From an uncultured Verrucomicrobiae bacterium (GTDB taxonomy: Bacteria > Verrucomicrobiota > Verrucomicrobiia > Chthoniobacterales > Chthoniobacteraceae): a DNA stretch of 64,000 nucleotides. Location of the stretch: positions 224,001 through 288,000 of the forward strand of contig CAWIKF010000001.1 of assembly GCA_963836755.1 (NCBI GenBank). The letters run 5' to 3'. The notes under the pieces were generated by a model that searched no databases, was not told the origin of the DNA, and worked only from the letters and a program-made list of their open reading frames with translations. The translations under genes were made by a program, and so were the position numbers. This document shows positions 4,706 through 55,112 of this stretch, one piece after another (within the stretch, counting starts at the first letter, position 1; every line of letters starts with the position of its first letter).

Positions 4706-4961
4706 GGTGACCACCAGACGGCGAATGGTCGCCACCCGACCGGAGATAGTGGCCACCTTTCTGGAATGGTGGGCACCGGACAGGAAATGGTGGCCACCAT
4801 CGCGGAATGGTGGGCACCTGCGAGCATTTGGTGGCCACTTTTTGCAAATGGTGGCCACCTGAGAGGTTTTGGTGGTCACCATTTTGGAAAGGTGACCACC
4901 GGGGACGAATTGGTGGCCACCTTTTAGAAATGGTGGCCACTATTTGGAAAAGGTGAGCACT
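4706..4961. repeat. Tandem array 1: 13 copies of palindromic core GGTGGCCACC with 10/11-nt spacers
   Basis: Cores start at 4706, 4727, 4748, 4768, 4789, 4809, 4830, 4850, 4871, 4891, 4912, 4932, 4952. Confidence 0.95.
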
Positions 4962-5353
4962 TTTCTCGAGCAATTCCAGCCTTTTACTCTGTTGAGCAGC
5001 ACGGGAGGAGGTTTCTCGGCCCCTTGGACCAGCCGATCTGAGTGCCAGGCGAGAAGAGGGGAGCGCACGCAAGCATCCGTTTACGCCGCGCATCGTCATG
5101 GCGACGATTGTCACACGTCCGTGCGCACTCGCCTGTGCTCGCCGAGCAGTCCCATCCCAAATTGCTGAGAATGCATATAAAAAGTCACAAAATAGAATTG
5201 GACGCCATTCGCAGCCGGATTATTTTCCCCGCGCTCGATCCCCTTTGTGCTGCTTTTCCCCGAACCTTTATCCCACACGAACCCGCGTAAACAGAGGCAT
5301 CGCGGTCATTTTTCAAGTGCCGGAGCCACATTTCCCGCGGCTCCGAAAAATTC

Positions 5354-5405
5354 TCACAAGAAAGTGAAAAAATTATTTGACGCCCGCTTTCCGCTCCGGT
5401 ATCTT
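5354..5405 (+). promoter_or_regulatory. Sigma70-type promoter with upstream TCAC-N6-GTGA inverted repeat
   Basis: TTGACG (5377-5382), 17-bp spacer, TATCTT (5400-5405); TCACaagaaaGTGA 5354-5367; same arrangement upstream of the paralog. Confidence 0.7.
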
Positions 5406-5449
5406 CCATCCCAGCAGCTCCCATTCTCATTAAAAACCTCCCGTTTCAA

Positions 5450-8400
5450 ATGAACCAATCTTCGATCTCGAATTCCGTCTCCATCAACCTCTCAGCCTCC
5501 AAAAGCAGAATGAAATACAAGCAATCCTTCGCCCTCAAGCTCCGCAACCGCGTCGCAGCGGTCATCGCCACCACCGCCGCGATCACGATGTCCAGCCACT
5601 CGGCTCACGCGCAGAATACGGTGGACAATTACACCGGCACCACGACCGGAAACGTCACTACGCCTGGCAACTGGAGCTTGAACGCGGTCCCTGTCATTAC
5701 CAATGATGCCGTTTTCCCAGTCGGCGCCGCCACCGGCGTTAGGAATTTCAGCGTAGGCAACGGCGCCTCTGTGGGACCGAGCTTGGTGGTTGGTTCGCTG
5801 GACGATTTATCCACAGGAACCACGGTCACGATCCAGAACGTTACGACCTCTGCCTCCGCTGTCACCATTACCTTGGGCGGTGCGGGTAATCTTGGAAATT
5901 CTGTCAGCGGAACCGCCGCCGATTTGTTTTACGTTGCGACGGGCGGAACTTTCAACATTACGGGCACTGGCGGCACTGGTGCCACCCTCGGCCTCGTTCT
6001 CGGCCAATCGGGTAATTTTGATGTCGCCGGCACCTCGACCATCACTTCGATCATCAGCGATGGCGGAAACGCCTTTGCGATCACCAAAACGGGCGCTGGC
6101 ACCCTGACGCTCTCGGGTGTCAATACCTTCTCCGGCGGATTCACCGTCGGCGCGGGCACTGTGACTTTCGGCGGCAATGCTGCCAATCTGGGGGCCGGCG
6201 CGATCGGTCTCGGCATAGCCTCCGGCTCTACGAACGCGATCCTGCAGTATAATACGGGGGGGGTCAACACGTTCACTAATGCGGTCAATGTCAACGCAAC
6301 TTCCGGTGGGACGCTGGAAATCTTGAACAGTTCCGGTTCTGTAAACTTCTCGGGGCCGGTGACGCTAGCCAACAACCTGCTGTTGGTGAATACCAACGGC
6401 ACCACCACAAATACCCTGACGCTCAGCGGGAATATCACTGGCACGGGTAATATCACCGCCAGCGCTACGACTGGAGCGCCCATCATTCTTACTGGAACGA
6501 ACTCTTACATCGGCACCACGACCCTGACGGCGAACAACTTGTATGCGGAGAATACAGGAGCGACAAATGTCGATAAGGCACTCAGCACGGGCACAGTGAT
6601 TTTGAATGGCGGCAGTCTCTTTCTGAAAGCCGACGGCAGCGGCAATGCTCAAACGATCATCACGGGCGACGGGACGACGGGCAACAACGTCACGGTGGGC
6701 GGAAACACGACCATTGACGTCAATAAGCTGGTAGCGGCCAACACCGGAAATACTTTTGTGCTCAACAACCTGAGCATTGGCGCAAACACACTCAACGTCA
6801 CAGGCGGGAGCAGCTACGCGCTGAAGTTCGCGGGCACGACGACCTTGACGGGCAACGCCACATTCAGCCCCAGCACGGCGAACCTCACTTTGACCGGCGT
6901 TATCGGCGACGGCGGCAGCGGATTCACGCTCACGAAAACCGGAGCAGGCACACTGTCGCTAGCCGGCGCGAATACCTACAGCGGCTTGACCACGGTTTCC
7001 GCCGGAACGCTCTCGCTGGCGGGTGGCACCATTGCCAACAGCAACGTCAGCCTCGGTTCAGCCACCTTCCAGGTTCTGAATGATGGTGCAGGCAGCAATG
7101 GGACGATCAGTCTCGGCAATAACGTCACTGTTAATGGAGCGACTACGACGGATACCATCAATGTCGGCAACAACGGCAGCGGGAACACTGGCAATACTGT
7201 GGCGTTCGGCGCGTTGAGCAACGGAACACCCGCTCAAGGTAACGCGGTCACGATCAATTTTACCGGCGCCAATGGCTACTTGGAAAGCTTCAGCAGTCTG
7301 GCACTGACCGGCGGTGGGGGTCAAGGAACCACCTTAAATCCGACGAGCACCTCGGTCACCATCCTGGGCAATGTCACCAATCAGATTACCACCAATCCGC
7401 CGACGGGAAAATTTGACACTCTGGTCCTCAGCGGCACCAGCTCGGGCAATGCGATCAATGGTGTCATCGCCGACAACGCCAACTACACCTCGGTCGGCAA
7501 CGGAGACACTCGAGTCACCATGACCGGCACCGGCTCGTGGACGCTCGGCGGCGCGAACACCTACCACGGTCCCACGACCGTCAACAACGGCACTCTCAAG
7601 TTGGGTCTCACCAATGCCATTCCGACGGCCAGTGCGCTCACGGTTTCGGGCTCGGGTGCGGGAGTGACCGCCATTCTCGATTTGGCGGGCTTCGATGAGA
7701 CCAACAGCAGCCTGAGCTTGGGCGGCAGCACCGCTACCAGCGGCGCGACTGTCACGAACTCCACTGGCAGCAGCACGCTCAAACTCACGGCCGGTGCGAC
7801 TTATTCGGCCACCAACAATCCGCTGGGTGCCACGATTTCCACCACCACCCTCGACCTGAACGGCGCGGCGCAGACCTTTACCGTTGGCGACAGCACCACG
7901 GCGCCATTTGATCTCTCCATTTCCTCCGTCATTCAGAACGGCTCTCTCATCAAAGCAGGCTCCGGCGTCCTCGCTCTGAGCGGCGCGAATACCTATGCTG
8001 GGGGAACGTCGGTTACTGCCGGCACTCTCGACTTTCAAAAGACGGCGGCGAAGCCGGTGGCCGGAACCACCACCGTCTCCAGCGGCGCCACTCTGGGACT
8101 CGGGGTGGGAGGAGCGGGATTTTTTGGTGCGGCGGATGTGAATGCCTATCTGACGAATACACTTTCCGGCGTGAGCGCATCTCGGAATCTCGCGATCGAT
8201 ACGACAGCCGGTGACTTTAGCCTGGGAGGCCTCGCCCTCCCGAATGGTTTGCGCTCTATCGCCAAGCTGGGCGCCAATACCTTGAATCTGGGCGGGATTA
8301 CTCGCACTCTGGGGATTTTGAATTTGCCGAACGCGACCGGTGCGGTCACGACCACGAACAGCAATGACGCAAGCGGCATCCTCGGGCCTTGGGCGACCAT

Positions 8401-11400
8401 CGGCACCGGTGCATCGATCAGCTACGCGGTGGCCAACGGCGGCAGCACCCCCATCAGTGCGTTGCCTGTCGCCTCGCAGACGGGTCTAGGGAACGCAGGA
8501 GGAGGCACGGTGGACATCACGAACTTCATCGATAACACCGGCAGCAAAACATTCACGGCGAATGTGGCGGCCAATACTATCGAGAATAGCTTTGCCGGCG
8601 TGACGCTGGCCAACGGCGGCTTCAGCGTGACCACGAACGGCATCCTCGACCTGACCGGCACAACGTTCAGCGGGGCCGGACATATGAAGGCCGGTGCGAC
8701 CAAGGAACTCGACATCATCAACACGAACGTGACCACGACGATCAGCTCGGTCATCGAGGATTCGGCGTCTGGCCCATCGTCGTTGGTTTTTGCCGGCGTC
8801 GGCGGGGGCACCCTGGTTCTTGGTGGAACTACTAATACCTACACTGGCAAGACCTTGATCACCAACGGCACCATTTCCATCTCCGTTGAGGCTGCTCTCG
8901 GTGCTACGCCGGTTTCAGCCGTGGCTGACGAGATTACTCTCGATAACGGCACTCTCCTCGTGACGGGTTCGGGCAATCAAGTTATACTGACCGCAAACCG
9001 GGGGATCACCCTCGGAACCTACGGTGGAACTTTGAATCCTGGCTCCAACAATGCCAGCCTCACGGTGAATGGCGTCATCACCGGCTCTGGCTCGCTGACT
9101 ATTAATGGGAGTAACGCCAGCGGTCGCTTTTTTACTCTTGGTGGTGCGAATACTTACACTGGCGACACCAGTATTCAAAACTCTACCGTGCTGAATGTGA
9201 ATACTGCGACAGCCTTCGGCGTTGGCGGCACGGTGTCCGTTGGCTCCTCCGGAAGTAACCTCACTCCTAATATCAAGATCGGTAACTTCACTGTCGCAAA
9301 CGCGATTTCGGTGACCGCGGGTGGAGGGCGCAATTTCCTCGCCGTTGGAGCAACGAGCGGTCTGAGCGGTGCGATCGCATTGGTCGGTGGAGCGACGAAT
9401 CCCACCTTGAATCTGGGCATTAGCGGCAACAATGAGACGTTTAACATCACCGGCGGAGTGACCGGCACGGGGAACATTTCCCTGGGTTCTGGATCGTCTG
9501 CCGTGACTGGCGCGCAAATCAATCTCAGCGGGGGCGCGATCAACAATATCGGCACGATCACCAATGTGGGGGTCGTTACTTCGGGCACATACACCATCAG
9601 CGCCAATATCGGCTCGAATGTCACGGGCGTGATCCAGAACAGCAGTGCGGTTCCTCTGGTATTGAGCGGAGTGAACACCTACACCGGCGCGACCGCCATC
9701 AATAGCGGCAAACTCCGCTTGACCGGTTCGCTGACGAGCGCGGTAACGGTGGGCAATGACTCAGCCACCACGGCCATCTTCTCTGGCACGGGCACGACAA
9801 CGGGCTTGGTGACCACTTTCACCAATGGAGCGAACGTTGCCTACCTCGCCCCTGGCGTGAATGTCAGCGGCACCCGCACCGACTTCGGTGCAGCCGGCAC
9901 GCTGCACCTGAACAATGGGTTGACTATCGGCAACGGGACGCAGCTTGATTACGACTTGGGCACCTCGCAGGATTTGATCGCCGGCAGCGGCGCTCTTAGC
10001 CTTGGCACCGGAGTCACTGTCAACGTTGCCGATCTTGGTGGCCTGGCGACAGGCACCGCTTACACCCTGATCAGTGGCTTCGGCTCCCACAGCGGTGACG
10101 TGAGCACATGGACGGCGGCTGGCACGGCACCCGCCGGCACGACGGGCTACACCTTTGCTCTTAGCGGCAACGACGTGACGCTGAAATTCATCGGGGCGGC
10201 GGCGACTGCGACCAGCTACTCGCTCGCAGCGGTGGCGGCGAACAACAATGTGCTCGTCAACCACGCCACAGGAGTCACCAGCACGATCACCAACACCGGC
10301 ACCGGCACGGCGGATACGCTCGACTACACCGGCTTGAGCGCAAGCGCGACCGGCGGCACGATCACCGGGGCGGCGACCAATGGCGGCCCGCTGGCGCTAG
10401 GCGCGAGCGGCAGCAACTCCGGGTTGACCTACAACGCGGGAGCCACCAGCGGCACCTACGCAATTGCGGTCACCCCGACCGTGGGCACCGCCACCAATGA
10501 CACCATCGGCGGCAGCGCTTCCAACAGCGGCACGACGACACAGGCGGTGACGGTGTATGACGCCGCCTCGCTCAGTGGCAGCGGGCTCAACGTGGCCAAC
10601 GCCGCGGGAACTTTCCGCGCCTCGGCCGCGGTGACTTCCGAGAGCTTCAATGGCCAGGCTGGCTTCACGGCCGCCGGCGGCCTTGTTGGCACGCAGATCG
10701 ACGCAGGCACCTCCACGGCAGCGGCGACCTTCGACAGCACCGGCAAACTCAACGGCACCTATAACACCACCGCCACCATCGGCTTCAACGATGTGACCAG
10801 CGGCAGCGCAGCCATCGCAGGCGGCACGGGTGACAGCGCTACGGGCATCGCCCTTTCGGCGACGGTCACCGGCAAGACCAACAACGGCAGCGCCACGGTG
10901 CTCGCGGGACAAAGCTACGCGGGCTACGGATTGACCAGCTCCGGCTTTGCCCAGAGCCCGACCACGGCCACGCTCCTCGACGGTCACGCCGGCGTGGGCA
11001 ACACAGGCCCTCTCTCCGATGGGCTGGATCACACCGTCGTCATGGCCTTCTCGAACGGGGTCGGCGGCGAACCGAACGACGCGAGCAAGCTGAGCGATGT
11101 GCTGACCTTGACCGGCACCAACACCGACAAGTTCGTGCTGCAACTCACCTACACCGGCACACCGGCCCAAGGCACTCCGTTCCTCGCCTACTACAGCGCG
11201 GCCTACGGCGGCTATGTCAACGCGATTGCAGGCAACAGCAGCGGGAACATGACCCCGTTCGGCGGAGCCGCATACGGAGAAATCGCAGGCGCCTATGATC
11301 CGAACAACGACTTCGTGCTCGGCGACTACGGGTTTGATGCCGCCAACCACACCGCGTGGGCAGTGCTCGATCACAATAGCGACTACGAAGTCATCCCCGA

Positions 11401-11491
11401 GTCCAGCACTTGGGCATCACTCGCAGCCGGCTTCAGCACGCTCATCGTGTGGCAGCGCGGACGCCGCCGGAAGTCAGTGCGCCTGAGCTAA
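5450..11491 (+). CDS. Large (2013 aa) PEP-CTERM-type surface protein with many autotransporter-associated beta-strand repeats
   Basis: Signal peptide after MKYKQSFALKLRNRVAAVIA; repeated TKTGAGTLTLSG-NT[YF].G.T motifs; C-terminal WAVLDHNSDYEVIPESSTWASLAAGFSTLIVWQRGRRRK. Confidence 0.92.
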   Translation: MNQSSISNSVSINLSASKSRMKYKQSFALKLRNRVAAVIATTAAITMSSHSAHAQNTVDNYTGTTTGNVTTPGNWSLNAVPVITNDAVFPVGAATGVRNFSVGNGASVGPSLVVGSLDDLSTGTTVTIQNVTTSASAVTITLGGAGNLGNSVSGTAADLFYVATGGTFNITGTGGTGATLGLVLGQSGNFDVAGTSTITSIISDGGNAFAITKTGAGTLTLSGVNTFSGGFTVGAGTVTFGGNAANLGAGAIGLGIASGSTNAILQYNTGGVNTFTNAVNVNATSGGTLEILNSSGSVNFSGPVTLANNLLLVNTNGTTTNTLTLSGNITGTGNITASATTGAPIILTGTNSYIGTTTLTANNLYAENTGATNVDKALSTGTVILNGGSLFLKADGSGNAQTIITGDGTTGNNVTVGGNTTIDVNKLVAANTGNTFVLNNLSIGANTLNVTGGSSYALKFAGTTTLTGNATFSPSTANLTLTGVIGDGGSGFTLTKTGAGTLSLAGANTYSGLTTVSAGTLSLAGGTIANSNVSLGSATFQVLNDGAGSNGTISLGNNVTVNGATTTDTINVGNNGSGNTGNTVAFGALSNGTPAQGNAVTINFTGANGYLESFSSLALTGGGGQGTTLNPTSTSVTILGNVTNQITTNPPTGKFDTLVLSGTSSGNAINGVIADNANYTSVGNGDTRVTMTGTGSWTLGGANTYHGPTTVNNGTLKLGLTNAIPTASALTVSGSGAGVTAILDLAGFDETNSSLSLGGSTATSGATVTNSTGSSTLKLTAGATYSATNNPLGATISTTTLDLNGAAQTFTVGDSTTAPFDLSISSVIQNGSLIKAGSGVLALSGANTYAGGTSVTAGTLDFQKTAAKPVAGTTTVSSGATLGLGVGGAGFFGAADVNAYLTNTLSGVSASRNLAIDTTAGDFSLGGLALPNGLRSIAKLGANTLNLGGITRTLGILNLPNATGAVTTTNSNDASGILGPWATIGTGASISYAVANGGSTPISALPVASQTGLGNAGGGTVDITNFIDNTGSKTFTANVAANTIENSFAGVTLANGGFSVTTNGILDLTGTTFSGAGHMKAGATKELDIINTNVTTTISSVIEDSASGPSSLVFAGVGGGTLVLGGTTNTYTGKTLITNGTISISVEAALGATPVSAVADEITLDNGTLLVTGSGNQVILTANRGITLGTYGGTLNPGSNNASLTVNGVITGSGSLTINGSNASGRFFTLGGANTYTGDTSIQNSTVLNVNTATAFGVGGTVSVGSSGSNLTPNIKIGNFTVANAISVTAGGGRNFLAVGATSGLSGAIALVGGATNPTLNLGISGNNETFNITGGVTGTGNISLGSGSSAVTGAQINLSGGAINNIGTITNVGVVTSGTYTISANIGSNVTGVIQNSSAVPLVLSGVNTYTGATAINSGKLRLTGSLTSAVTVGNDSATTAIFSGTGTTTGLVTTFTNGANVAYLAPGVNVSGTRTDFGAAGTLHLNNGLTIGNGTQLDYDLGTSQDLIAGSGALSLGTGVTVNVADLGGLATGTAYTLISGFGSHSGDVSTWTAAGTAPAGTTGYTFALSGNDVTLKFIGAAATATSYSLAAVAANNNVLVNHATGVTSTITNTGTGTADTLDYTGLSASATGGTITGAATNGGPLALGASGSNSGLTYNAGATSGTYAIAVTPTVGTATNDTIGGSASNSGTTTQAVTVYDAASLSGSGLNVANAAGTFRASAAVTSESFNGQAGFTAAGGLVGTQIDAGTSTAAATFDSTGKLNGTYNTTATIGFNDVTSGSAAIAGGTGDSATGIALSATVTGKTNNGSATVLAGQSYAGYGLTSSGFAQSPTTATLLDGHAGVGNTGPLSDGLDHTVVMAFSNGVGGEPNDASKLSDVLTLTGTNTDKFVLQLTYTGTPAQGTPFLAYYSAAYGGYVNAIAGNSSGNMTPFGGAAYGEIAGAYDPNNDFVLGDYGFDAANHTAWAVLDHNSDYEVIPESSTWASLAAGFSTLIVWQRGRRRKSVRLS

Positions 11492-11556
11492 GGCGACAGT
11501 CGCAACCATTACTCCAAAAAGCGCCGCAGTTCGAAAGACTGCGGCTCTTTTTTTTT
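9674..11556 (+). repeat. Long direct repeat copy 1 (3' ~600 codons plus terminator), paralogous to 16186-18064
   Basis: Near-identical protein and DNA from NTYTGAT..GKLRLTGSLTSAVTVGNDSATTAIFSG through the stop codon and terminator. Confidence 0.9.
11516..11556 (+). terminator. Rho-independent terminator
   Basis: AAAAAGCGCCGCAGT-TCGAAAG-ACTGCGGCTC followed by T9. Confidence 0.85.
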
Positions 11557-11844: not shown

Positions 11845-11896
11845 TCACAAAAAAGTGAAAAAATTATTTGACACCCATTTTTCCCTCCGCTATCTT
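11845..11896 (+). promoter_or_regulatory. Sigma70-type promoter with upstream TCAC-N6-GTGA inverted repeat
   Basis: TTGACA (11868-11873), 17-bp spacer, TATCTT (11891-11896); TCACaaaaaaGTGA 11845-11858. Confidence 0.75.
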
Positions 11897-11940: not shown

Positions 11941-14900
11941 ATGAACCAATCTTCCATCTCCAATTCAGTTTCCGCCAACCTCCTCATCAAAACCTCCAAA
12001 AACAAAATGAAATACAAGCAATCCTTCGCCCTCAAGCTCCGCAACCGCGTCGCAGCGGTCATCGCTACCACCGCCGCATTCTCGATGTCTGCGCAGGCGG
12101 CAGATACCACCACTTCTTCGTGGCTCGGCGGAACGACCAACTGGTCAACCTCCGCGGGGAACTGGAGCGCCGGCGTGCCTTCTGCAACGATCAGCGCGAA
12201 GTTTGACGGGACTTTCACGAACCAGCCGACCCTCACCGCGGCTTCTACGGCACAGGGAATCTGGTTGGCCACTGGCGATGCCCAGGATGTGACGATCAAT
12301 GCGGCTTCTGCCTTCACGCTCAGCTTGACCGGCACGGCCACCTTAAATAGTCAGACCAATGCCGGTATCATCATGACCGATACGGCGAATCACAACCTCA
12401 CGATCGGGCCGAACGTGAGCATCACGCTGTCCAACCCTACTGGTTTTTATAACAATGAAGCGACGGGTCTCCTGACGGTCTCTGGCGGTTTAAACACGAA
12501 TGCGAAAGCCCTGGCCATTGCTGGCACGGGTGCCACGACCCTCTCCGGTGTTGTTAGCGGCAGCGGTGCAATTACCATCAGTAACGGCGGCACGGTGACG
12601 ATTTCGAACATCACTGACTCCTATAGCGGCCAGCTCACCGTTCAGAACGGCAAGTTGAAGATCGATACGATCAATAACACGAGCGCGAATGGTGAATTGG
12701 GTAACAATGCGCTTGCTGTCATCCTGGGCAATACGGGCGGCCAGACCGGCACGCTGGACTACACCGGCGTCACGGCAGCGAGCAGTAAGAAATTCACGAT
12801 GGCCACCGGCGGCACCGGCGCTTTCCAGATCGATACAGCGGCGGCTGTCCTCACACTCAGCGGCGTGATTGACGGCGGCGGCGCGCTCACCAAGACAGGT
12901 GGCGACACCGCGAGCGTGCTCCTTCTCTCGGGTGGAAACTCCTACAGTGGTGGTTTGAATGTCGTCACCGGCACGGTGAAGCTCGGCAATACCACCGGCT
13001 CGGGTGCCGCGACAAACATCGTCTCCGTCGGCACGGGTGCGACTTTCGATATCGCGACTTTCTCGCCAACCATCGGCGGTTTGACCGGATTGGGAACGGT
13101 GACCAATAGCAGCACAGCGGGCACGCTGACCATCAACTCCACGACCACCAACACCTTTGGCGGCGTGATCACGGCAGTCACCCCTGCCAACCTCTTGCTG
13201 ACCAAAAGCGGTTCGGGAACTCAAATCCTGACCGGCGCGAACACCTACACTGGCGCGACCACCATCAATGCGGGCATTCTGCAATTGAGCGGCGCAACCG
13301 GTGCCTTGGCGCTTTCCGCCACGGCCCCGGCGTTGAACGGCGGCTCTTTGATCCTGGATAACACCGGTGCTGCCAGCAACAACAACAACCGTATCGCCGA
13401 TACACAGGCACTCGCGCTCAACGGCGGCAACTTCGTTTACAAAGGTTCCGATCAAGGGGCCACCAACTCCACGGAGACCATCCAAAACCTCAGCGGCACT
13501 GGCAATTCCACCATCACGGTCTCCTTCGGCGGCACGAACGGGGCTACTCTCACGGCGGGAACCTTTACGCACGCAGCGGGCAATGCCACCGATATGGTCA
13601 ACGGTGTAAACCTTGGCAAAAACTCGACGGATGCCGCGAGCTTCGCCCGTTTCATCAGCACTGCGCCGACTCTGACCGGCACGACGAACGCCCTCACGAC
13701 GGGCATCAATTCCGCTGTCAAGAACACGAAAATCGTTCCGTTCCTGGTGGGCGAAGCGACTTCGACCACTGGCGGCTTGGGAACGGCCACCGGCACGGCG
13801 AATACTTTTGTCACCTACATTGCCGGCAGTGGCTATCGCCCGTTGAACCCGACCGACGAGTTCACCAACAACGCCATCACGGCAGGCACTAACACTTACG
13901 TCACCACGGGGGCTACCAACACCGCCAATACCTCGATCAATTCCCTCGTCATCAATGGCGGTGACGTGACGGTCAACGACGGCTTCACCCTCACGAACAC
14001 CAGCGGCGCCTTGCTCTTTGCTTCGTCGAACAGCATCAAACCCAGCGGCACGACCGGCCTCTACACGGGTTCTGCGGAAAACCAGATCACGGTGAATTCC
14101 GCTGTGACCGGCACCATCAGCGCGATTGTGAGCGGCTCGCAAGCCCTCACCAAGAGCGGCGCGGGCACGCTGGTGCTCAGCGGGGCGAACACCTATAACG
14201 GCGCCACGACCCTCGCCGCGGGCACGCTGAACCTTAGCAATGCGCTGGCTCTGCAAAACAGCACCTTGACGTATAGCACCGCCGGCACATCGCTGGTATT
14301 CGATGCAGCGGGCGGCACCGCCTTTACCCTTGGTGGCCTGACCACGGGCAACAACATTCTTTTAGCTAATAATGGTTCAGCTGCAATCAACTTGACCGTG
14401 GGCGGCAACAACAGCTCGACGACCATTGGTGGTGTCCTCTCGGGCACGGGCGGCTCGCTGACGAAGACTGGCACTGGCACGCTGACTCTGGGTGCAGCGA
14501 ATACCTACACCGGCGCGACGGTCGTCAATGGGGGCAAACTCTACCTGCAAAATGGTGCGACGCTCAAGTTCAGCTCCTCTGTCACTGCGACCGGAACCGG
14601 CTTGCTCGCGATGAACAACGGCAGTGAAAGCGGCCAGTTTGCGGCGGGAGTGGTAATCCAGGGCACTGGTGGCTTTAGCAACGAGATCAACAACCCGAAT
14701 ACCAACGTAACTTTAGACCGGGACAATACTTATACCGGGCAGACGACATGGGGATCTCGAGGTGTCACCGCAGCGGGCGTGGTCTCAAAATACGACGTCA
14801 GCGGCAACCAGATCAGCGGTGCCTTTGGCGTCAATTCAAAGATTAATTTTGCCGCCCAGCCGTCTACGTTGCTTTTAAGCGGCAATAACAACCAGGTTGG

Positions 14901-17900
14901 GTCGCTGTCCGGGACGCCCGGCGGCGGAGGTGGCGTGCTGCTGCGTGGTGCAACCATCACGATCGGCGGAGACAACACAGACGCCACCTACACCGGGCCT
15001 ATTACCAATAACTATTTACCGGGCACCGATCAAAACGGCAACGGCAGCACTGGCCAAGTTGCAGGCGGTAATGTCATCAAGATCGGCACCGGCACGCAGA
15101 CCATCGTTTCAACCAACAACCCCAGCGGCTATGAGGGGACAACGACCATCAAGGGCGGTGTGCTGAGCATCAATGTGCTGGGAACCAACGGGGATACTGC
15201 TAACAACCCAAATGGAACGAGCGGCTATGTGACCGCGACGACTACGATCGTCAACACCACGACACTTACGGTTGCGAGCGGCACGACGGGTTTGGTTAAA
15301 GGTATGAGTGTATTCGATCTCCAGTCGCTTGGTAACGGAGCGAAAATCACCAATCTCGTGGACAACGGCACGACTATCACGATTACCTTATCCGCCGGTC
15401 TTAATGCGGGCGTTACTGGAACCAAAACCAATGTAAACTATGGTTTTGGCAGCGGCATCGGCCTTGCCGGTCCCGCCGCATCCACCCTCGTCCTTGACGG
15501 CGGCACGCTGCGATACACGGGTGTGGCGACCACCACCGACCGTCTCTTCACCGTCGGCTCCACGGTCGCTGGCGCGACGGGAACACTCGATGCCTCTACC
15601 GGGGGGGCTATCACCTTCGGCAACACTGGCGCAATCGCCTACGGGACGATCGATCAAACCCGCACGCTCGGCCTCACTGGCAGCACTGCCGGGAACATCT
15701 TCAATCCCCTGATTGGCGACAATGGCGCGGGTGCAGTTAGCGTGCTCAAATCGGGCACGGGTTCCTGGACGCTCACGAACACGGGCAACGCCTACACTGG
15801 TGGAACCACCGTCAACGCCGGCATCCTGACTTCCGCAGTGACTGGTGGCTTCGGCGCAGGCAATGTGACCGTGAATCCGACCGGAAACACTTTGGCGGAT
15901 GCGACGACGTTAAACTCGACCGGCAGCATCGCCTCGACGGCGCTGGTCACGGTTAACAACAACGTTGCCGCCATCGGCACGGTGAACTTTAACGGCGCGG
16001 CGCCGACCATCGGCGGCTTGACCGGCAGCGGCAACGCGGTCCTCAACAACGCGACCGGAACTGCATTGACCGTGGGCAGCACGAACAACCTCGACTCGAG
16101 CTTCACAGGCGCCATCAGTGAAGGCACCGTCGGAATGGGCAGCCTCATCAAGGCGGGCACTGGCACACTGGCCTTGGGCGGCACGAATACCTACACCGGC
16201 GCGACCACGGTCGCGAACGGCAAACTCCGCTTGACCGGCTCGCTGACGAGCGCGGTAACGGTGGGAAATGATAGCGCGACCACCGCCATCTTCTCCGGCA
16301 CGGGCGCGACGAGCGGCTTGGTGACAACGTTCACCAATAACTCGAACATCGCCTACCTCGCGCCTGGCGTGAATTCCACCGGCACCCGCAGCGACTTCGG
16401 TGGGGCTGGCACGCTGCACCTGAACAATGGGTTGACCATTGGCAACGGGACTCAGCTTGATTACGACTTAGGCACCTCGCAGGATTTGATCGCCGGCAGC
16501 GGCGCTCTCTCGCTCGGCACGGGTGTCACGGTGAACGTCGCCGACCTGGGTGGCCTGACGACCGGCACGACCTACACGCTGATCAGCGGCTTTTCCGGCG
16601 TAACCGGCAGTCCGACAGGATGGACGGCGGCTGGCGCGACGCCTTCTGGCTCGACCGGCTACACCTTTGCCCTCAGCGGCAACGATGTGACACTGACCTT
16701 CAACGCTCCTGTGAGTGCGACGGCGACGACCTACTCGCTGGCAGCAGTGGCAGCGAACAACAATGTGCTCGTCAACCACACCACAGCAGTCACCAGCACG
16801 ATCACCAACACCGGCACCGGCACGGCGGATACGCTCGACTACACCGGCTTGAGCGCAAGCGCGACGGGCGGGACCATCACCGGGTCTGCGACCAACGGCG
16901 GCCCGCTGGCGCAAGGCGCGAACGGCAACAACCCCGGGTTGACCTACAACGCGGGAGCCACCAGCGGCGCCTACGCAATCACCCCGACCGTGACTACCGC
17001 AACCAACGACACGGTAGGCGGCAGCGCGAGCAGCAGCGGCACGACACCTCAAGCGGTGAACGTGTATGATGCAGCCTCGCTCAGCGGCAGCGGACTCAAC
17101 GTAGCCAACGCAGCGGGATCTCCGCTCCGCGCCTCGGCCGCAGTGACTTCTGAGACCTTGAGCGGCCAATCCGGCTTCACCGCCGCGCTGGTCCCCGGCA
17201 CCACGAAGATCGACGCGGGCACTTCCACGGCAGCGGCGACCTTCGACAACACCGGCAAGCTCAACGGCACTTATCACACAACCGCCACTGTCGGCTTTGA
17301 TAATGTGACCAGCGGCAACGCTGCCATCGCAGGCGGCGCAGGCGACAGCGCCACCGGCATCGCCCTGAGCGCCAGCGTCTCCGGCAAGACCAACACCGGC
17401 AGCGCCACGGTGCTCGCGGGACAAAGCTACGCGGGCTACGGCTTGGGCAGCACGTTTACCGACAGCACCACCGCCACGCTCCTCCAAGGCAACGCCGGCG
17501 TAGGCAACACAGGCCCTCTCTCCGATGGGCAGGATCATACCGTCAACATGGCCTTCTCCAACGGGGTCGGCGGCGAACCGAATGATGCCAGCAAGCTGAG
17601 CGACGTGCTCACCTTGACCGGCACCAACACCGACAAGTTTGTCCTGCAACTCACCTACACTGGCACACCGGCCCAAGGCACACCGTTTATCGCCTACTAC
17701 AGCGCGGCCTACGGCGGCTATGTCAACGCGATTGCCGGCAACAGCAGCGGAAACATGACCCCCTTCGGCGGACCCGCCTACGGAGAATTGACGGGTGCGT
17801 ATGATCCGAACAGCGAGTTTGTCCTCGGTGACTACGGGTTTGATTCCAACACCAACACCGCATGGGCAGTGCTCGATCACAATAGCGACTACGAAGTCAT

Positions 17901-17997
17901 CCCTGAGTCCAGCACTTGGGCATCGCTCGCAGCCGGCTTCGGCACGCTCATGGTCTGGCAGCGCGGACGCCGCCGGAAATCAGTGCGCCTGAGCTAA
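11941..17997 (+). CDS. Large (2018 aa) PEP-CTERM-type surface protein with autotransporter-associated beta-strand repeats; tandem paralog of 5450-11491
   Basis: Same leader MNQSSISNSVS...MKYKQSFALKLRNRVAAVIATTAA; same C-terminal region and IPESSTW tail; different centre. Confidence 0.92.
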   Translation: MNQSSISNSVSANLLIKTSKNKMKYKQSFALKLRNRVAAVIATTAAFSMSAQAADTTTSSWLGGTTNWSTSAGNWSAGVPSATISAKFDGTFTNQPTLTAASTAQGIWLATGDAQDVTINAASAFTLSLTGTATLNSQTNAGIIMTDTANHNLTIGPNVSITLSNPTGFYNNEATGLLTVSGGLNTNAKALAIAGTGATTLSGVVSGSGAITISNGGTVTISNITDSYSGQLTVQNGKLKIDTINNTSANGELGNNALAVILGNTGGQTGTLDYTGVTAASSKKFTMATGGTGAFQIDTAAAVLTLSGVIDGGGALTKTGGDTASVLLLSGGNSYSGGLNVVTGTVKLGNTTGSGAATNIVSVGTGATFDIATFSPTIGGLTGLGTVTNSSTAGTLTINSTTTNTFGGVITAVTPANLLLTKSGSGTQILTGANTYTGATTINAGILQLSGATGALALSATAPALNGGSLILDNTGAASNNNNRIADTQALALNGGNFVYKGSDQGATNSTETIQNLSGTGNSTITVSFGGTNGATLTAGTFTHAAGNATDMVNGVNLGKNSTDAASFARFISTAPTLTGTTNALTTGINSAVKNTKIVPFLVGEATSTTGGLGTATGTANTFVTYIAGSGYRPLNPTDEFTNNAITAGTNTYVTTGATNTANTSINSLVINGGDVTVNDGFTLTNTSGALLFASSNSIKPSGTTGLYTGSAENQITVNSAVTGTISAIVSGSQALTKSGAGTLVLSGANTYNGATTLAAGTLNLSNALALQNSTLTYSTAGTSLVFDAAGGTAFTLGGLTTGNNILLANNGSAAINLTVGGNNSSTTIGGVLSGTGGSLTKTGTGTLTLGAANTYTGATVVNGGKLYLQNGATLKFSSSVTATGTGLLAMNNGSESGQFAAGVVIQGTGGFSNEINNPNTNVTLDRDNTYTGQTTWGSRGVTAAGVVSKYDVSGNQISGAFGVNSKINFAAQPSTLLLSGNNNQVGSLSGTPGGGGGVLLRGATITIGGDNTDATYTGPITNNYLPGTDQNGNGSTGQVAGGNVIKIGTGTQTIVSTNNPSGYEGTTTIKGGVLSINVLGTNGDTANNPNGTSGYVTATTTIVNTTTLTVASGTTGLVKGMSVFDLQSLGNGAKITNLVDNGTTITITLSAGLNAGVTGTKTNVNYGFGSGIGLAGPAASTLVLDGGTLRYTGVATTTDRLFTVGSTVAGATGTLDASTGGAITFGNTGAIAYGTIDQTRTLGLTGSTAGNIFNPLIGDNGAGAVSVLKSGTGSWTLTNTGNAYTGGTTVNAGILTSAVTGGFGAGNVTVNPTGNTLADATTLNSTGSIASTALVTVNNNVAAIGTVNFNGAAPTIGGLTGSGNAVLNNATGTALTVGSTNNLDSSFTGAISEGTVGMGSLIKAGTGTLALGGTNTYTGATTVANGKLRLTGSLTSAVTVGNDSATTAIFSGTGATSGLVTTFTNNSNIAYLAPGVNSTGTRSDFGGAGTLHLNNGLTIGNGTQLDYDLGTSQDLIAGSGALSLGTGVTVNVADLGGLTTGTTYTLISGFSGVTGSPTGWTAAGATPSGSTGYTFALSGNDVTLTFNAPVSATATTYSLAAVAANNNVLVNHTTAVTSTITNTGTGTADTLDYTGLSASATGGTITGSATNGGPLAQGANGNNPGLTYNAGATSGAYAITPTVTTATNDTVGGSASSSGTTPQAVNVYDAASLSGSGLNVANAAGSPLRASAAVTSETLSGQSGFTAALVPGTTKIDAGTSTAAATFDNTGKLNGTYHTTATVGFDNVTSGNAAIAGGAGDSATGIALSASVSGKTNTGSATVLAGQSYAGYGLGSTFTDSTTATLLQGNAGVGNTGPLSDGQDHTVNMAFSNGVGGEPNDASKLSDVLTLTGTNTDKFVLQLTYTGTPAQGTPFIAYYSAAYGGYVNAIAGNSSGNMTPFGGPAYGELTGAYDPNSEFVLGDYGFDSNTNTAWAVLDHNSDYEVIPESSTWASLAAGFGTLMVWQRGRRRKSVRLS

Positions 17998-41425: not shown

Positions 41426-42478
<1,053 letters not shown>

Positions 42479-49559: not shown

Positions 49560-49579
49560 GGCGCCATCGGCGCTCTCTT

Positions 49580-49675
49580 TTAGCCACGGATGGAAACGGA
49601 TGAAACACAGATACGGATTGGCACGCAGCCGTCCTTGGTTTCTCCACATCCGTGCTCCATCCGTGCCGATCCGGC
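49580..49675. repeat. CACGGAT/ATCCGTG-type short inverted repeat element
   Basis: GCCACGGATGGAAACGGATG... pairs with CATCCGTGCTCCATCCGTG; a further right arm occurs at 50137-50161. Confidence 0.75.
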
Positions 49676-49678
49676 ACT

Positions 49679-49952
49679 GAAAACTCGGCGTCCCGGCGTG
49701 AATTCCTCACGTCCCGTCGAGAAAAGTCCACGTCCGATGGAGAAAAGTTGAGGTCCCGAGGAGAATTTCTCACGTCCCGGGGAGAAAACTTCACGTCCCG
49801 CGGAGAATTTCTCACGTCCCGTTGAGAAAACATCACGTCCCGGGGAGAATTTCCCACGTCCGATGCAGAAGTTTTCACATCCCGAGGAGAAGTTCTGACG
49901 TCCGGTGTAGAAGTTTTTTACATCCCGAAGCCATTTCCTCACGTCCCGCCGC
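49679..49952. repeat. Tandem array 2: 13 units of 21 bp, consensus GAA-WWNYY-CACGTCCCG-NNGA
   Basis: Units start at 49679, 49700, 49721, 49742, 49763, 49784, 49805, 49826, 49847, 49868, 49889, 49910 (22 nt), 49932. Confidence 0.95.
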
Positions 49953-49991
49953 CGAAAACGGATAATTTAAGACAAATCTCTCGCAAATGAC

Positions 49992-50097
49992 CGGGAGCGC
50001 ACGCTTCCAGCGTGCAGTCGCCGGCATCCTGCCGGCGACATCCGCGAAGGATTCGGCAAGGATGCCGAACCCGGCACGCTGGAAGCGCGCGCTCCCG
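49992..50097. repeat. REP/MITE-like palindromic element (106 bp)
   Basis: CGGGAGCGCACGCTTCCAGCGTGC ... GCACGCTGGAAGCGCGCGCTCCCG terminal arms (23/24 complementary); internal CGGCATCCTGCCG / CGGCAAGGATGCCG hairpins. Confidence 0.85.
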
Positions 50098-50248
50098 ATA
50101 AGAGCCGTCCGTCTCATCCCAAAAAACCCCGTTTCCCATCCGTGTCCCATCCGTGGCTGAACCAAATGGAACCCGCATGAATCTCCTTCCCAATGCACCC
50201 AAAAACATCACTCTCCCCAAATGCCTGAAAACACACCCGCCACGTTGA

Positions 50249-50680
50249 CGATCCGCAACGCGCAACATCCTCGAAGCCGCTCTCAACAATGAGGCGACCT
50301 ATGTGGAAGGCCTCGTCGAAGACCTCACCGATGCCGCCGCAGCCGCCATTATCGAGGAAGCGGGCATGTCCGTGGCGGGAGAAGTTCCGCCCATCGGCCC
50401 GATGCCGAAAGTCGATGGCCTTTCCGCCACGCAAGGCGACAGCGAAGGCGAAGTCGATCTCCATTGGAACCCCGTGAAACGCGGCTTGCAAAACTACCTC
50501 ACCGAGGTCACCGACGACCCGACCGGCCAGACCGGCTGGCGCTTTGCCGCCAACAGCCGCAAAAGCAGCGTCGCAGTCACCGGCCTCACGAGTGGGAAAA
50601 GGTATTGGTTCCGCGTCACGGCCGAATGCGCCTCCGGCTCCGGCCCCGCCAGCGAGCCGCAAACCAAAGTCGCGCCGTAA
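50249..50680 (+). pseudogene. Fibronectin type III domain protein, apparently 5'-truncated
   Basis: Open frame from in-frame TGA 50246-50248: ..RNILEAALNNEATYVEG..IIEEAGM..LSATQGDSEGEVDLHW..VTGLTSGKRYWFRVTAECASGSGPASEP; no ATG before the helical remnant. Confidence 0.75.
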
Positions 50681-50693
50681 AAACCTCTCCCGG

Positions 50694-50749
50694 ATTAGAC
50701 TCAAACATGCGCATTATATTGCGCATGTTTGAGGTCTAATTCGTTAGGC
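50694..50749 (+). other. Long palindrome ending in an attI-like recombination core GTTAGGC
   Basis: ATTAGACTCAAACATGCGCA-TTATAT-TGCGCATGTTTGAGGTCTAAT then TC then GTTAGGC (GTTRRRY). Confidence 0.55.
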
Positions 50750-51298
50750 GCTCCTGATGCGCTATCTACCCAAAATATTGTTTCTCTATCTGGGCGCAGC
50801 GGTATATGCGTGCGCTAGTGACAGGGTCGATTTCACAGGCACGTGGGATCAGCGGAATGCCAAAGCGATCTCGTTCACGCTGTCATTAAAACAGACTGGT
50901 AATCGACTCGAAGGGTATCATCTCGCCGTGGTGCTATACACTCGCGCTCATCACATCGACGACGGGGGCTCTCCAGAAGACGGCGATCCACCATCAATTA
51001 TAGGTATTGTCAGTGGCCAAGAAGCCAGGGTGCGGTTTGAGAGTGGCCGAGAGGGAGGTGGCGCTGCCTTGATAAGATTTGAAGGCAATCGAATTGAGTG
51101 GAAGACGCTTAGTTCTCGTCCTGGGCACTTTTTCCCTGATCATGCGATTCTCGAAAGAAGAGGCTCTCGAAATCATTAAAGGTTCTCAGTCACCACTCGC
51201 TGTCGCAGGATGAAAAAGCCTAACAACGTTGCAGCTAATTGGCTCCGGCCTTCACGCTGGCTGCTGCGCACCCAGCGCCCCATCCTCCGCCATTAGCG
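50743..51298 (+). mobile_element. Solitary integron-type gene cassette with degenerate/truncated attC
   Basis: Core GTTAGGC 50743-50749 just before the ATG; exact inverse core GCCTAAC 51218-51224 after the stop; GCTAATTGGC...GCCATTAGC stem; terminal GTTRRRY missing. Confidence 0.7.
50757..51179 (+). CDS. Small secreted hypothetical protein (cassette-borne)
   Basis: 140-aa ORF, N-terminal signal MRYLPKILFLYLGAAVYA(C), DFTGTW beta-barrel-like start, atypical A/T-ending codons (AGA, TTA, ATA). Confidence 0.7.
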   Translation: MRYLPKILFLYLGAAVYACASDRVDFTGTWDQRNAKAISFTLSLKQTGNRLEGYHLAVVLYTRAHHIDDGGSPEDGDPPSIIGIVSGQEARVRFESGREGGGAALIRFEGNRIEWKTLSSRPGHFFPDHAILERRGSRNH

Positions 51299-52261: not shown

Positions 52262-53302
52262 GCCGCGGCTGCCGCCTTTCGCGCGAAGAGCCGCGTGAAG
52301 CAGCGGCGCGCTTTTTCACTTTGCAAAAGACAGACGGCGATGACGACGAGCGCCTTCGGGACCGGCGCGATGTCGGCGCTGACGTTGCGCGCATACATCG
52401 TGGTCGTGAGCGTCTGGATGAGCAGCGCGCCGACGATGGAGCCGAGCAGGTAAAAGCGCCCGCCGGTGAGCGCGGTGCCGCCGATGACGACGGCGAGGAT
52501 CGCATCGAGCTCAAAGTAAAGTCCGGCGTGGTTCGCATCGGCGCTCTTGATGTCGGACGCGACGACGAGGCCGGCGAGCCCGGCGCAAAAACCGGCGAAG
52601 ACGTAGGCGATGAATTTTACCATGCGCGCATTCACGCCGGCGTAGCGGCTGGCGATGTCGTTGTCGCCGACTGATTCGATGAACAAGCCGAGCGCCGTGC
52701 CGCGGGTGAGCGCGTGCGGTGACGCCGAGCAGCACGAGCACGAGAATGCACGGAAACGGCAAGCCGAAGAGGTAGCCGTTCGCGATGTAAACCAGCGCGG
52801 GGTCGGTGAAATTGGTAATTTGTCCACCGGTGATGAGCTGCGCGATTCCGCGGCCGGCGACCATCAAAATCAAAGTTGAAACGATCGGCTGGATGCCGAT
52901 GCCGGCGACGAGGAAACCATTCCACGCGCCGAGCAGGAGCGAGACGAAAAGCGCGAGCGCCATCGCGGCGGCGGGTGAAAATGGATGCGCCACGACCGCC
53001 TGCGCCAGCACCGCGCCAGTCACGGCGACGATCGCGCCGACGGACAAATCGACGCCGCCCGTGGCGATGACGAGCGTCATGCCGAGCGCAACGAGCATCA
53101 CGATGCCGCCGTGTTTTAAAATATCGATCAGCGTCCCGTAGAGATGCCCATCGCGCAGCTCGAGCTTGAAGAAACCGGGCGTCAGCAGCGCGTTAAACAA
53201 AAGTAAAAGTCCCAGCGCGAGCAGCGGAAAAAAGATGCGCTCTTTTCGCGTGAAAAAGAGCAACGCCGCAAACGCTGCCCAAAAAAGAACGAGAAAAATC
53301 AT
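52258..53302 (-). pseudogene. ytfT: Monosaccharide ABC transporter permease (YtfT-like), split by a frameshift near 52717
   Basis: N-half (ALGMTLVIATGGVDLSVG...GRGIAQLITGGQI) in the 53302 frame; C-half (LTRGTALGLFIESVG...ELDAILAVVIGGT) in the 52258 frame. Confidence 0.8.
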
Positions 53303-54828
53303 TTCAGCACTGCCTCGGATTCCGCAGTTGGCGCGGCGATCTGCCGCATGATCGCCTGCTCGCTGATTGCGCCGCCCGAGAGCTCGCCAACTTTTTTCCG
53401 ATCGCGCAAAATCACCACGCGTTGGCTCGTGCGGACGATCTCCTCAAGCTCGGAGCTGATGAGCAAAATCGCCAGACCGTCGCGGCGCAGCTCGTCGATG
53501 AGCTTCTCGATTTCCGCCTTCGCGCCGACATCGATGCCGCGCGTCGGCTCGTCGAGAATGATCAGTTTCGGCTCCGTCGCGAGCCAGCGCGCGAGCAAAA
53601 CTTTTTGCTGATTGCCGCCGCTCAGGTTTTTCACCGGCTGCTCCGGCCCCGGAGTTTTGATGCGCAGCGCCGCGATGAATTTCTCGGCGAGCGCATTTTG
53701 TTTTGCCCGCGAAAGCTTTGCCCATGCGCCTCGGCTGGCCTGGAGCGCGATCACGATATTCTCGCGGATCGAAAGATTCGGGATGATGCCGTCCACTTTG
53801 CGATCCTCGGCGGTGAAGGCGAGACGCTGCCGAATCGCGGCGCGCGGCGAGGAAATATTCACCCGTTCGCCGTTCAAAAACATTTCGCCCGAATCCGCTT
53901 TATCCACGCCGAAAATAATGCGCGCCGTTTCGGTGCGGCCGGAGCCAAGCAGCCCCGCGAGCCCGACGACTTCGCCGGGACAAATGCTCAAGTCCAGCGG
54001 CGCGATCGAGCCTTTGCGCCCAAAGTTTTTGACTTCTAGGAACGGCTTTTCGGAAATGTCGCGCGCGCCCTGATGATGGCTTTGCATCGCCGCGACCTCT
54101 TTCACGTCTTTGCCAATCATGCGCGCGACGAGCTCGAGACGCGGCAGCTCGGCGGTCGGATACTCGCCGACGAGTTCGCCATTGCGAAGCAACGTGATGC
54201 GATCGGTCACCGCATAAACTTGATCCATGAAATGCGTGACGAAGACGATGCCCATGCCGTCGTCGCGCAGCTTGCGGATGACTTTAAAAAGTTCGGCGAC
54301 CTCGCGCTCATCGAGGCTCGAGGTCGGCTCGTCGAGGATGAGCAACTTTGCCGCAACGTCCGTGGCGCGGGCGAGCGCGACCATTTGCTGGATCGCAATC
54401 GAGCAGGCGGAGAGCTGCCGCGACGGATCGAGATCGAGTTCCAGCCGCGCCAATGCCTGCTTCGCGCGCTGCATAATCGCGCGCCAGCGAATTTTCCCGA
54501 AAAAAGTCGGCTGCCGCCCGAGGCAGATATTTTCCGCGATGGACAGGTCGGGAATGAGATTGACCTCCTGATAGACCGTGCTGATGCCGCACGCCTCCGC
54601 CTCGCGTGGACTGCGCGGCGAAATCGCGCGGCCATCCAGCCGCGTCTCGCCCGCGTCGCGGTCGTAAACGCCGGTCAGCACTTTGATCAGCGTGCTTTTG
54701 CCTGCGCCGTTCTCGCCCATCAGCGCGTGGATCTCGCCGCGGCGGACGGTGAAATCGACGCCGGCCAGCGCGCGGACGCCGGGGAAACTTTTCGTCAATC
54801 CACGCACTTCGAGCAGGGGGCTGTTCAT
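53299..54828 (-). CDS. ytfR: Monosaccharide ABC transporter ATP-binding protein with two ABC domains (YtfR-like)
   Basis: True start likely ATG 54828 (MNSPLLEV); GENGAGKST, LDEPTSSL, GLLGSGRTE, LSGGNQQKVLLARWL, DEPTRGIDVGAK. Confidence 0.88.
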   Translation of the reverse strand: MNSPLLEVRGLTKSFPGVRALAGVDFTVRRGEIHALMGENGAGKSTLIKVLTGVYDRDAGETRLDGRAISPRSPREAEACGISTVYQEVNLIPDLSIAENICLGRQPTFFGKIRWRAIMQRAKQALARLELDLDPSRQLSACSIAIQQMVALARATDVAAKLLILDEPTSSLDEREVAELFKVIRKLRDDGMGIVFVTHFMDQVYAVTDRITLLRNGELVGEYPTAELPRLELVARMIGKDVKEVAAMQSHHQGARDISEKPFLEVKNFGRKGSIAPLDLSICPGEVVGLAGLLGSGRTETARIIFGVDKADSGEMFLNGERVNISSPRAAIRQRLAFTAEDRKVDGIIPNLSIRENIVIALQASRGAWAKLSRAKQNALAEKFIAALRIKTPGPEQPVKNLSGGNQQKVLLARWLATEPKLIILDEPTRGIDVGAKAEIEKLIDELRRDGLAILLISSELEEIVRTSQRVVILRDRKKVGELSGGAISEQAIMRQIAAPTAESEAVLK

Positions 54829-54882
54829 CTGTTGATGGGAGATCGGGTAAAAGTCCTCGCTCGGGGCGACCATTCTGCGACG

Positions 54883-55112
54883 TCGGGGATCTACTTTGCA
54901 AGGATGCGGAGAGAGGTTGGGCGAAGTCGCGTTGGGAACGTGAAAAATCGTGGCGACTTTGCTCCCAATCGCGACGACTGCGTTTAAAGTCGCAATGACT
55001 TTGCTCAAAGAAATGACGACTTTGTTCCAAGAAATGAAGACTTTGTCAGAAATCGGAATGGCTTTGTTCCAATCGTCGAGACTTTGTCCTGAATCGCGCT
55101 GATTCTCTCTTT
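54883..55112. repeat. Tandem array 3: degenerate 21-bp units with core GACTTTG
   Basis: Clear units at 54946, 54967, 54988, 55009, 55030, 55051 (20 nt), 55071; in-register degenerate units at 54883, 54904, 54925, 55092. Confidence 0.85.

Follow-up and report, generated by a model that had tools for sequence, protein, structure and literature searches.

What kind of DNA element keeps the length of its repeating unit and leaves the sequence of that unit free? The question is raised by three intergenic tandem arrays in a window of 64,000 nucleotides (nt) from an uncultured Verrucomicrobiae bacterium (GenBank assembly GCA_963836755.1, contig CAWIKF010000001.1, positions 224,001 to 288,000 of the forward strand). 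In the coordinates used here the window is G000:C1:224001-288000, where G000 is the source genome, with contigs C1 and C2; G251 and G252 are relatives. An initial annotation of the window had noted that the arrays share a pitch of ~21 bp with different cores, had paired two of them with genes for helical proteins that end in an Ig/Fn3-like domain, and had proposed either a protein that polymerises on its cognate array or a repetitive RNA transcribed from it. Our own answer, offered tentatively and with rather less than even confidence, is that the array serves mainly as a DNA lattice for a symmetric dimeric reader, for which the partner protein is the likeliest candidate, within a mobile and fast-decaying module.

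The three arrays are real: their lag identity is 0.64 for arrays 1 and 2 and 0.51 for array 3, and 200 dinucleotide shuffles of each array reach no more than 0.37-0.38 at whatever lag. Array 1 (4706..4961) has 13 units, of which 12 match the palindromic core GGTGGCCACC with at most two mismatches and the thirteenth is degenerate; its units alternate between 21 and 20 nt, so that the real period is 41. Array 2 (49687..49960) likewise has 13 units, around the core CACGTCCCG, and of its 12 spacings 11 are of 21 nt and one is of 22 nt. Array 3 (54883..55112; core GACTTTG) is an orphan at a synteny break 5' of a sugar ABC ATPase gene; about seven units are clear within 54946-55100, the array decays to the left, and one unit is of 20 nt. 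The initial annotation was thus right about the 13 units of arrays 1 and 2, about the presence of a 20- or 22-nt unit in each array, and about the distances that separate arrays 1 and 2 from the genes beside them (211 bp and ~300 bp). There is no Rfam match in the window. In one DNA run the locus is covered solely by short contigs, which end at the array.

Array 1 alone forms an intact pair, with a gene of what we call family A. In the source genome, all seven family A matches have an upstream array, with a different core each time. Outside it, 65 family A loci had the 5' end of the gene and at least 600 bp upstream; an array lies upstream in 56 of these, downstream in none of 61 and farther upstream in none of 35, the background, taken at a lower threshold over all G000 genes, being 106 of 2725. 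A searchable pattern could be derived from an alignment of 10 sequences but not from broad alignments of family A, so that the resulting 76 loci are biased to one subgroup. Family B, which is all-helical, has an array upstream in 16 of 20 loci and downstream in none of 18, and for family C (helix plus fibronectin type III, Fn3) the figures are 35 of 75 and none of 63; the rest of the 24 family B and 106 family C loci examined were too short or partial. The enrichment that the initial annotation had proposed to look for upstream of homologues is therefore present, and a module of array and helical-protein gene, with fixed pitch and differing core, exists. By their record titles, the array-bearing family A loci are mostly from Verrucomicrobiota; Gallionellales and Armatimonadota supply one each, and two family A loci of Methylococcales have no array.

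Measured locally, the unit is 21 long in 639 of 720 windows, 22 in 40 and 20 in 27. Geometry was assessed on 76 dereplicated, gap-free array families drawn from 149 arrays. Dyad symmetry is significant in 35 of them (column-permutation p<=0.05). Conservation peaks 5-7 bp on both sides of the dyad axis and dips at the axis itself, where the base is G or C in 72% of cases (56% expected), and the profile of conservation contains a harmonic of 10.5 bp (z 9.7) and another of 21 bp (z 6.7) but none of 3 bp (z -2.6) or 7 bp. The flanking peaks and the 10.5-bp harmonic together imply that the average unit consists of two inverted blocks one turn apart; a length of 21 bp is two turns of B-DNA (10.5 bp each) and also seven codons. 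The helical phasing supposed by the initial annotation is supported by that harmonic. Its proposal of an RNA scaffold or guide drew no support from strand tests: at the dyads there is no wobble bias (G-U 1288, A-C 1248), and the folding energy does not differ between strands (p 0.64). As neither wobble pairs nor folding energy prefers a strand, duplex DNA is favoured over RNA hairpins, and inverted blocks every 10.5 bp, with no codon-position or RNA-strand bias, point to a double-stranded DNA lattice.

What, then, might read such a lattice? The family A protein of the window (3791..4495, minus strand) has 234 aa, and its model (pLDDT 95) comprises a helical hairpin (helices 10-30 and 34-74), a Pro-rich linker, two short helices and an Fn3 fold at residues 135-234, for which the fold search gave Z 10.9 and a root-mean-square deviation of 2.4 over 89 residues. 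The fold matches are confined to residues 135-234, the helical domain having been searched only within the whole protein, and a viral library matched family A in the Fn3 part alone. An Ig/Fn3-like domain had been noted in both of the proteins singled out earlier, and the Fn3 fold is confirmed in each, the sequence at 50249 matching PF00041 with 32.5 bits (cut-off 25). Family A is predicted to form a homodimer, with a score of 0.81 as opposed to 0.00 for the best of three controls; 20 of 30 solved pairs and one of 23 single chains attain the mark set for this score. Between runs, at least 84% of contacts coincide and pLDDT is no lower than 86; the predicted interface is made by the long helix and a conserved GIxxR stretch. 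The family has 223 representatives at E<=0.001, without a match in Pfam, NCBIfam or PHROG apart from one spurious Pfam match in 83 members. Its gene is patchy and multi-copy, being found in 4 of 251 genomes of a phylum sample and in 8 of 41 relatives, with up to eight copies.

The other partners are equally nameless. Families A, B, D, E and F have nothing at cut-off in Pfam, NCBIfam or PHROG, and an Atlas search returned unnamed clusters and a weak DUF6261 lead (0.87). The family B model is a long helical bundle, for which fold searches yielded nothing clear, the best Foldseek E being 0.21 and the best VIA Z, 9.2 to I-BAR domains, lying in a range common for helical bundles. In 50 family A and C loci (L016-L093, L112, L319-L331) there is also a gene for a protein of 85-220 aa that starts MPFDP, ends RR and has variable collagen-like inserts; it is downstream in the copies inspected, the partner genes of these loci often have a Trp-Asp-repeat N-terminal extension, and its product has a weak PHROG minor-tail match (E 0.006). 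An ArsR-like gene beside one array was rejected as a recurrent component, being single-copy with one weak match in 235 loci.

The arrays are far more numerous than the pairs. A lag scan of G000 gave 56 regions at lag 20-22, whereas the eight other lag bins had one to six apiece. Lowering the threshold yielded 77 regions, of which eight were dropped for a best period other than 21, 41, 42, 62 or 63 and 11 more by eye (coding coiled-coil repeats, weak or duplicate signals). The remaining 58 are an approximate census, since two of the 11 lay at or beside real arrays and two further arrays surfaced through the end motif discussed below. As read by eye, 21 of the 58 adjoin small genes or fragments of six unnamed families, with the array upstream in every case for families A (seven), B (seven), C (one), D (three) and E (one), and downstream for family F (two). 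The family F genes (160-170 aa; L151 and L152, at G000:C1:161195 and C2:1046063) are thus unlike the other five families in position. The other 37 arrays are orphans with no recognised partner. By sequence, G000 has 11 array families of two to six copies, the copies mostly sharing the array alone; that of array 1 has three orphan copies elsewhere in the genome. Separate 8-bp tandem repeats stand just 5' of the 21-bp arrays at L007, L012, L084, L087 and L110.

Four arrays lie in frame within genes, namely alaS, ispG, nrdJ and a gene for an RND pump. The insert is missing from the orthologues of nrdJ (four of four), ispG (four of four) and the pump gene (two of two), and the ispG insert is 85% identical to the array beside the family E gene. 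At the corresponding loop of alaS, G252 has another heptad array, two genomes have inserts of other kinds and two have no insert. One orphan site of G000 is empty in four of four relatives; G252 has a copy of that array, 80% identical, at another site, which in turn is empty in G251. No target-site duplication is visible by eye, and the array 1 region has no orthologue in five relatives, hence no empty-site comparison there. These comparisons indicate that arrays are copied to new sites without the gene, even into essential genes. The alaS frame of G000 (L155, G000:C1:58953-62516, minus strand) has 1187 codons and holds, all in frame, inserts like repetitive extragenic palindromic (REP) elements, a 21-bp array and what looks by eye like a whole RAYT transposase domain. 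The in-frame array of the G252 alaS (L173) looks by eye like the array 1 family, with GGTG..CAC cores.

The reading that we favour, a DNA lattice with a dimeric reader, would join these observations as follows. The 21-bp unit, which tends to hold two short inverted conserved blocks about one turn apart, would let a two-fold symmetric protein load repeatedly along one face of the helix. Duplication and homogenisation of units would let the sequence drift while the spacing is kept. The lattice would be part of a small, multi-copy, often decaying module together with a helical-protein gene, of which there are at least six partner families in the genome; it would most likely control that gene or nucleate assembly of its product, and its likeliest reader would be the encoded dimer, acting with low sequence specificity. 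Arrays would also be copied to further sites without the gene. A length of 21, in preference to 20 or 22, may be favoured because no shorter one holds a whole number both of helical turns (10.5) and of codons (3), so that gain or loss of a unit would break neither helical phase nor reading frame, and ribosomes could read through. In this account the period, the position, the dyad geometry, the orphan spread and the stop avoidance described below are computed results and the dimer is a prediction; binding, the identity of the reader, regulation, the reason for 21 and the way in which arrays are copied are inferred.

Several observations weigh against this reading. In 41 of the 76 array families the dyad is not significant, and array 1 itself has one contiguous palindrome per two turns and not half-sites each turn. 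Forty of the 75 family C loci have no detected array, and the loci are phylogenetically clustered, so that all the counts overstate independence. Homology between families A and B was not detected (hhalign probability 3%), which makes a single reader mechanism for all partners an assumption. Family A proteins are acidic (median isoelectric point 5.4, net charge -3), and no DNA-binding fold could be recognised in them by fold search. The avoidance of stop codons described below falls short of significance when only families B and C are taken (19 vs 10, p 0.14) and may in part be base skew. Co-variation of cores with protein clade, which the initial annotation had named as support for its proposal, is not tight. 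Array sequence tracks protein sequence only above ~60% identity, with failures there too: protein pairs at 0.90, 0.81 and 0.75 identity share almost no 8-mers between their arrays, and the 234-aa protein of the window is 75% identical to its closest paralogue while the arrays share 1% of 8-mers. Proteins 75-90% identical can therefore carry unrelated arrays, and this loose tracking, together with the acidity of the proteins, argues against core-specific recognition by the partner.

Other evidence concerns translation. On the gene strand of the arrays TGA is the most strand-depleted of the 64 triplets and TAG the second, and stops are fewer on that strand in 32 array families and on the other in eight, of 47 (p 0.0002). 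A gene-strand frame is open in 61 of 63 arrays, an antisense one in 44. In each array of the window a single frame is free of stops, and it lies on the minus strand, which is the strand of the adjacent gene for arrays 1 and 3 and the opposite strand for array 2; the frame across array 1 (4263..5114, minus strand, 283 codons) overlaps the family A gene out of frame, and its translation is putative. An overlapping stop (ATGA or TRATG) is present in 36 family A loci. In 22 of these a frame that opens with ATG spans the array and terminates where the gene starts; the other two frames do so in five and five. A fibre-like gene lies downstream in 18 of these 22 loci; neither it nor a homologue of the Xre gene mentioned below was found in G000. 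Among four related loci the ratio of nonsynonymous to synonymous polymorphism (pN/pS) is 0.36-0.72 in the leader frame and 0.79-1.26 in the other frames, and this one orthologue group is under mild purifying selection in the leader frame. It could thus be proposed that the array is a translated leader, read by ribosomes through its stop-free frame, with the partner gene started by translational coupling, 21 standing for seven codons and the peptide or its translation being the function; the four in-frame arrays in housekeeping genes would fit. We nevertheless think this unlikely. The 22 loci represent eight array groups, the largest with 15 members, and coupling is absent from families B (0/1/0 of 13) and C (1/1/1 of 25). 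Between units there is no amino-acid constraint (pN/pS 0.86, compared with 0.76 and 0.94), mismatches fall evenly on the three codon positions (0.41/0.38/0.40) and codon-phase bias is found in 0 of 53 and 0 of 57 arrays; the 41-nt period of array 1 does not suit codons, and the 10.5-bp harmonic is left unexplained. The outcome that the initial annotation had named as contrary to its proposal, translated arrays with a conserved frame, applies in part to one family A subgroup; the lack of codon-phase bias, and of coupling in families B and C, speaks against a peptide function. Still less probable, to a degree that we would call remote, is transcription of the array into a repetitive hairpin RNA, a scaffold or guide for the partner protein: the dyad units could fold as hairpins, and the gene-strand triplet bias implies that some arrays at least are transcribed, but, besides the negative strand tests and the lack of an Rfam match in the window, the variable positions are homologous between units and are not unique spacers, and the pitch is that of B-DNA.

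Two further explanations deny the partner its role as reader. One has the arrays as selfish dispersed repeats, akin to REPINs or the Rickettsia palindromic element, with a host or mobile enzyme copying them in trans and the helical genes linked to them as part of a shared mobile unit, without binding. The 37 orphans, the array families that share little besides the array, the reciprocal empty sites and the in-frame insertions missing from orthologues all fit, as do the patchy multi-copy genes (4 of 251 genomes) and the RAYT-like domain seen by eye with REP copies in the same alaS gene. So does an end motif, TTTACTCTG, that flanks many arrays unrelated in sequence. In the form TTACTCTG it has 31 sites in G000, 17 of them within 150 bp of the 58 arrays (0.31 expected), usually 20-45 bp beyond the array and pointing away; it lies beside arrays at 10 of the 15 sites fetched in G252 (22 in total) and 7 of 15 in G251, and at none of 44 controls. 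We give dispersal of this kind about the same small chance as the translated leader, for it accounts neither for an upstream position that is constant over distant lineages nor for a pitch that holds while the sequence is free, no target-site duplication can be seen by eye, the partner lacks a transposase fold, and the end motif is near only one of 85 upstream regions outside this genome, i.e. hardly outside the genus. The same motif could act as an end signal or as a -10 box, and the latter possibility would suit an array that is the phased operator or activator site of a separate regulator, for instance an Xre helix-turn-helix dimer; a promoter would be tuned by the number of units, and the helical protein would be the regulated gene only. 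The half-site spacing suits helix-turn-helix dimers, as is well established for such proteins; an Xre-family gene (HTH_3, E 6e-9) is present in 20 of 235 loci; and the TACTCT of the motif, which fits a -10 box, is roughly in helical phase with the array (Rayleigh p ~0.002, for n=17 sites chosen from that configuration) and lies ~20-50 nt 5' of ATG in several G251 and G252 loci. Even so we see only a slim chance for such a regulator, because the dozens of cores in one genome would require dozens of regulators, an Xre homologue was not found in G000, and the orientation of the motif relative to the partner gene varies. REP elements are single hairpin units with a GTAG or CGTC tag; the array units have no common tag, and the end motif runs on into GTAG or GGAG at some sites only. 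The preferred lattice reading can also be pushed further, to a version that we regard as a long shot: dimers of families A-F would polymerise on dyad lattices by shape, govern their own gene and drive array copying without a transposase fold, the pitch being set by helix and genetic code together, and the Xre gene, coupled leader and fibre-like gene of some Verrucomicrobia would suggest that a particle is built.

Locus 1 is the intact example in the window. It runs from the family A gene through an inverted repeat, TGTCGAAA-N15-TTTCGACA (4580..4610), to array 1, the end motif TTTACTCTGTTGAG (4983..4996, plus strand), which is common to sequence-unrelated arrays of this genus, and a large diverging PATR-repeat gene; a bidirectional terminator-like hairpin (3667..3698) lies 3' of the family A gene. 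The inverted repeat is a possible operator or promoter. Its 16-bp spacer motif has four genome sites, all adjoining family A or E genes (window 4590-4605; G000:C2:1903708, 2228657 and 2229918), and two of the copies, directly repeated at a distance of 1.26 kb, enclose the array and gene of family E and resemble module boundaries. The PATR-repeat surface protein encoded at 5450-11491 has paralogues with the same N-terminus at G000:C2:709161 and 1904311. Since an array and end motif lie 5' of each of the three, array 1 might have a function for the large diverging gene as well. Adjacent PATR-repeat proteins of ~2015 aa each are encoded at 5450-11491 and 11941-17997, and two PATR/PEP-CTERM genes precede them.

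Locus 2 has fared less well, and here the earlier pairing of array with helical and Fn3 gene, which stands for array 1, breaks down. The frame at 50249..50680 (plus strand) had been taken for a gene; it has no start codon and is a 3' fragment, 65% identical to residues 74-216 of the 216-aa family C protein, and is probably a pseudogene. Just before it, and out of frame with it, are the first eight codons (MPENTPAT; 50221..50243, plus strand) of a family B gene, the partner that array 2 had originally and that is cut off at this point. Array 2, a multi-copy REP-like palindromic element (49992..50097) between array and gene start, and these eight codons are 89% identical over 662 bp to the family B locus at G000:C1:615768-616415, where the sister copy of the array occupies G000:C1:615830-616131. 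Locus 2 is, to judge from its sequence, a decayed chimera. Short repeats of the CCACGGAT/ATCCGTG type at 49583-49670 and 50129-50160 bracket array 2 and the REP-like element; such repeats occur at GxxExxY loci. After the fragment, a frame of 140 aa (50757-51179) with deviating base composition has no Pfam match and no match in five relatives. Array 3 has no sister copy in the genome. An open frame on the minus strand (53299..55230) begins past it, crosses it and runs on, without a change of frame, into the ABC ATPase, and in both sister genomes the position 5' of that ATPase is occupied, by eye, by a substrate-binding gene, with no array.

How far are such arrays already known? Helix-face-phased tandem sites beside a gene, with periods of 21-22 and 42-43 bp, are familiar as the iterons and centromeres of R6K, P1 and F and as sopC, parC and tubC, and dyads within units occur in sopC. 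Unlike these, the arrays described here are chromosomal, number ~58 per genome, have units 50-65% alike (0.51-0.64 in the window, where iterons would be near-identical) and have sequences untied to the partner. No Rep, ParA/ParB or filament NTPase is encoded in the window among 13 proteins scanned, the neighbours being PATR/PEP-CTERM, DUF4139, ABC and DUF4450 genes; at other loci three recurrent neighbours were scanned. PARCELs are also tandem repeats with DNA dyad symmetry (here in 35 of 76 families) that are patchy and move within genomes, but they encode a conserved 25-residue amphipathic motif, whereas the present unit is of seven codons, has no conserved peptide and is mostly intergenic. 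Phased helix-turn-helix, LytTR and ArgR-type operators share inverted half-sites one turn apart, 5' of a promoter-like site; they have two to four units and not 8-20, and lack the rapid sequence turnover and orphan dispersal. CRISPR and TIGR-Tas, the latter with a Nop-domain partner and an array RNA that is processed into guides, likewise have a repeat array adjoining a protein gene, but the present arrays have no unique spacers, a shorter unit and no RNA-strand signal, and no cas-type gene was found among the neighbours scanned. REP/REPIN-RAYT systems resemble the arrays in being palindromic, dispersed in many copies, seldom beside the partner gene and sometimes in frame in housekeeping genes. 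PMC3733652 reports in-frame intragenic REPs, many of them in the verrucomicrobium O. terrae, which are a parallel in behaviour and not the same element. The differences are that the units of the present arrays are set head to tail at a constant pitch of 21 bp, in dozens of unrelated sequences per genome, and that the partner is helical or helical plus Fn3 and not an HUH tyrosine transposase. The arrays are thus partly REP/REPIN-like and partly iteron- or centromere-like, and fail a defining feature of each.

No description of them was found in the literature covered, which includes PMC2996958 and PMC3733652 and few subscription journals. A class of bacterial DNA arrays with free sequence and a fixed 21-base unit is apparently undescribed; new here are the arrays that move alone, the in-frame insertions, the avoidance of stops on the gene strand, the leader frame in one subgroup and the shared end motif. 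If the reading proposed here is true, bacteria would have a class of element recognised by its spacing and not by its sequence, with several unnamed protein families attached to it. Direct tests become possible of phase against sequence and of DNA binding against translation. It would also explain the spurious heptad-repeat open frames in Verrucomicrobia annotations and the heptad insertions found there in AlaRS, IspG and ribonucleotide reductase.

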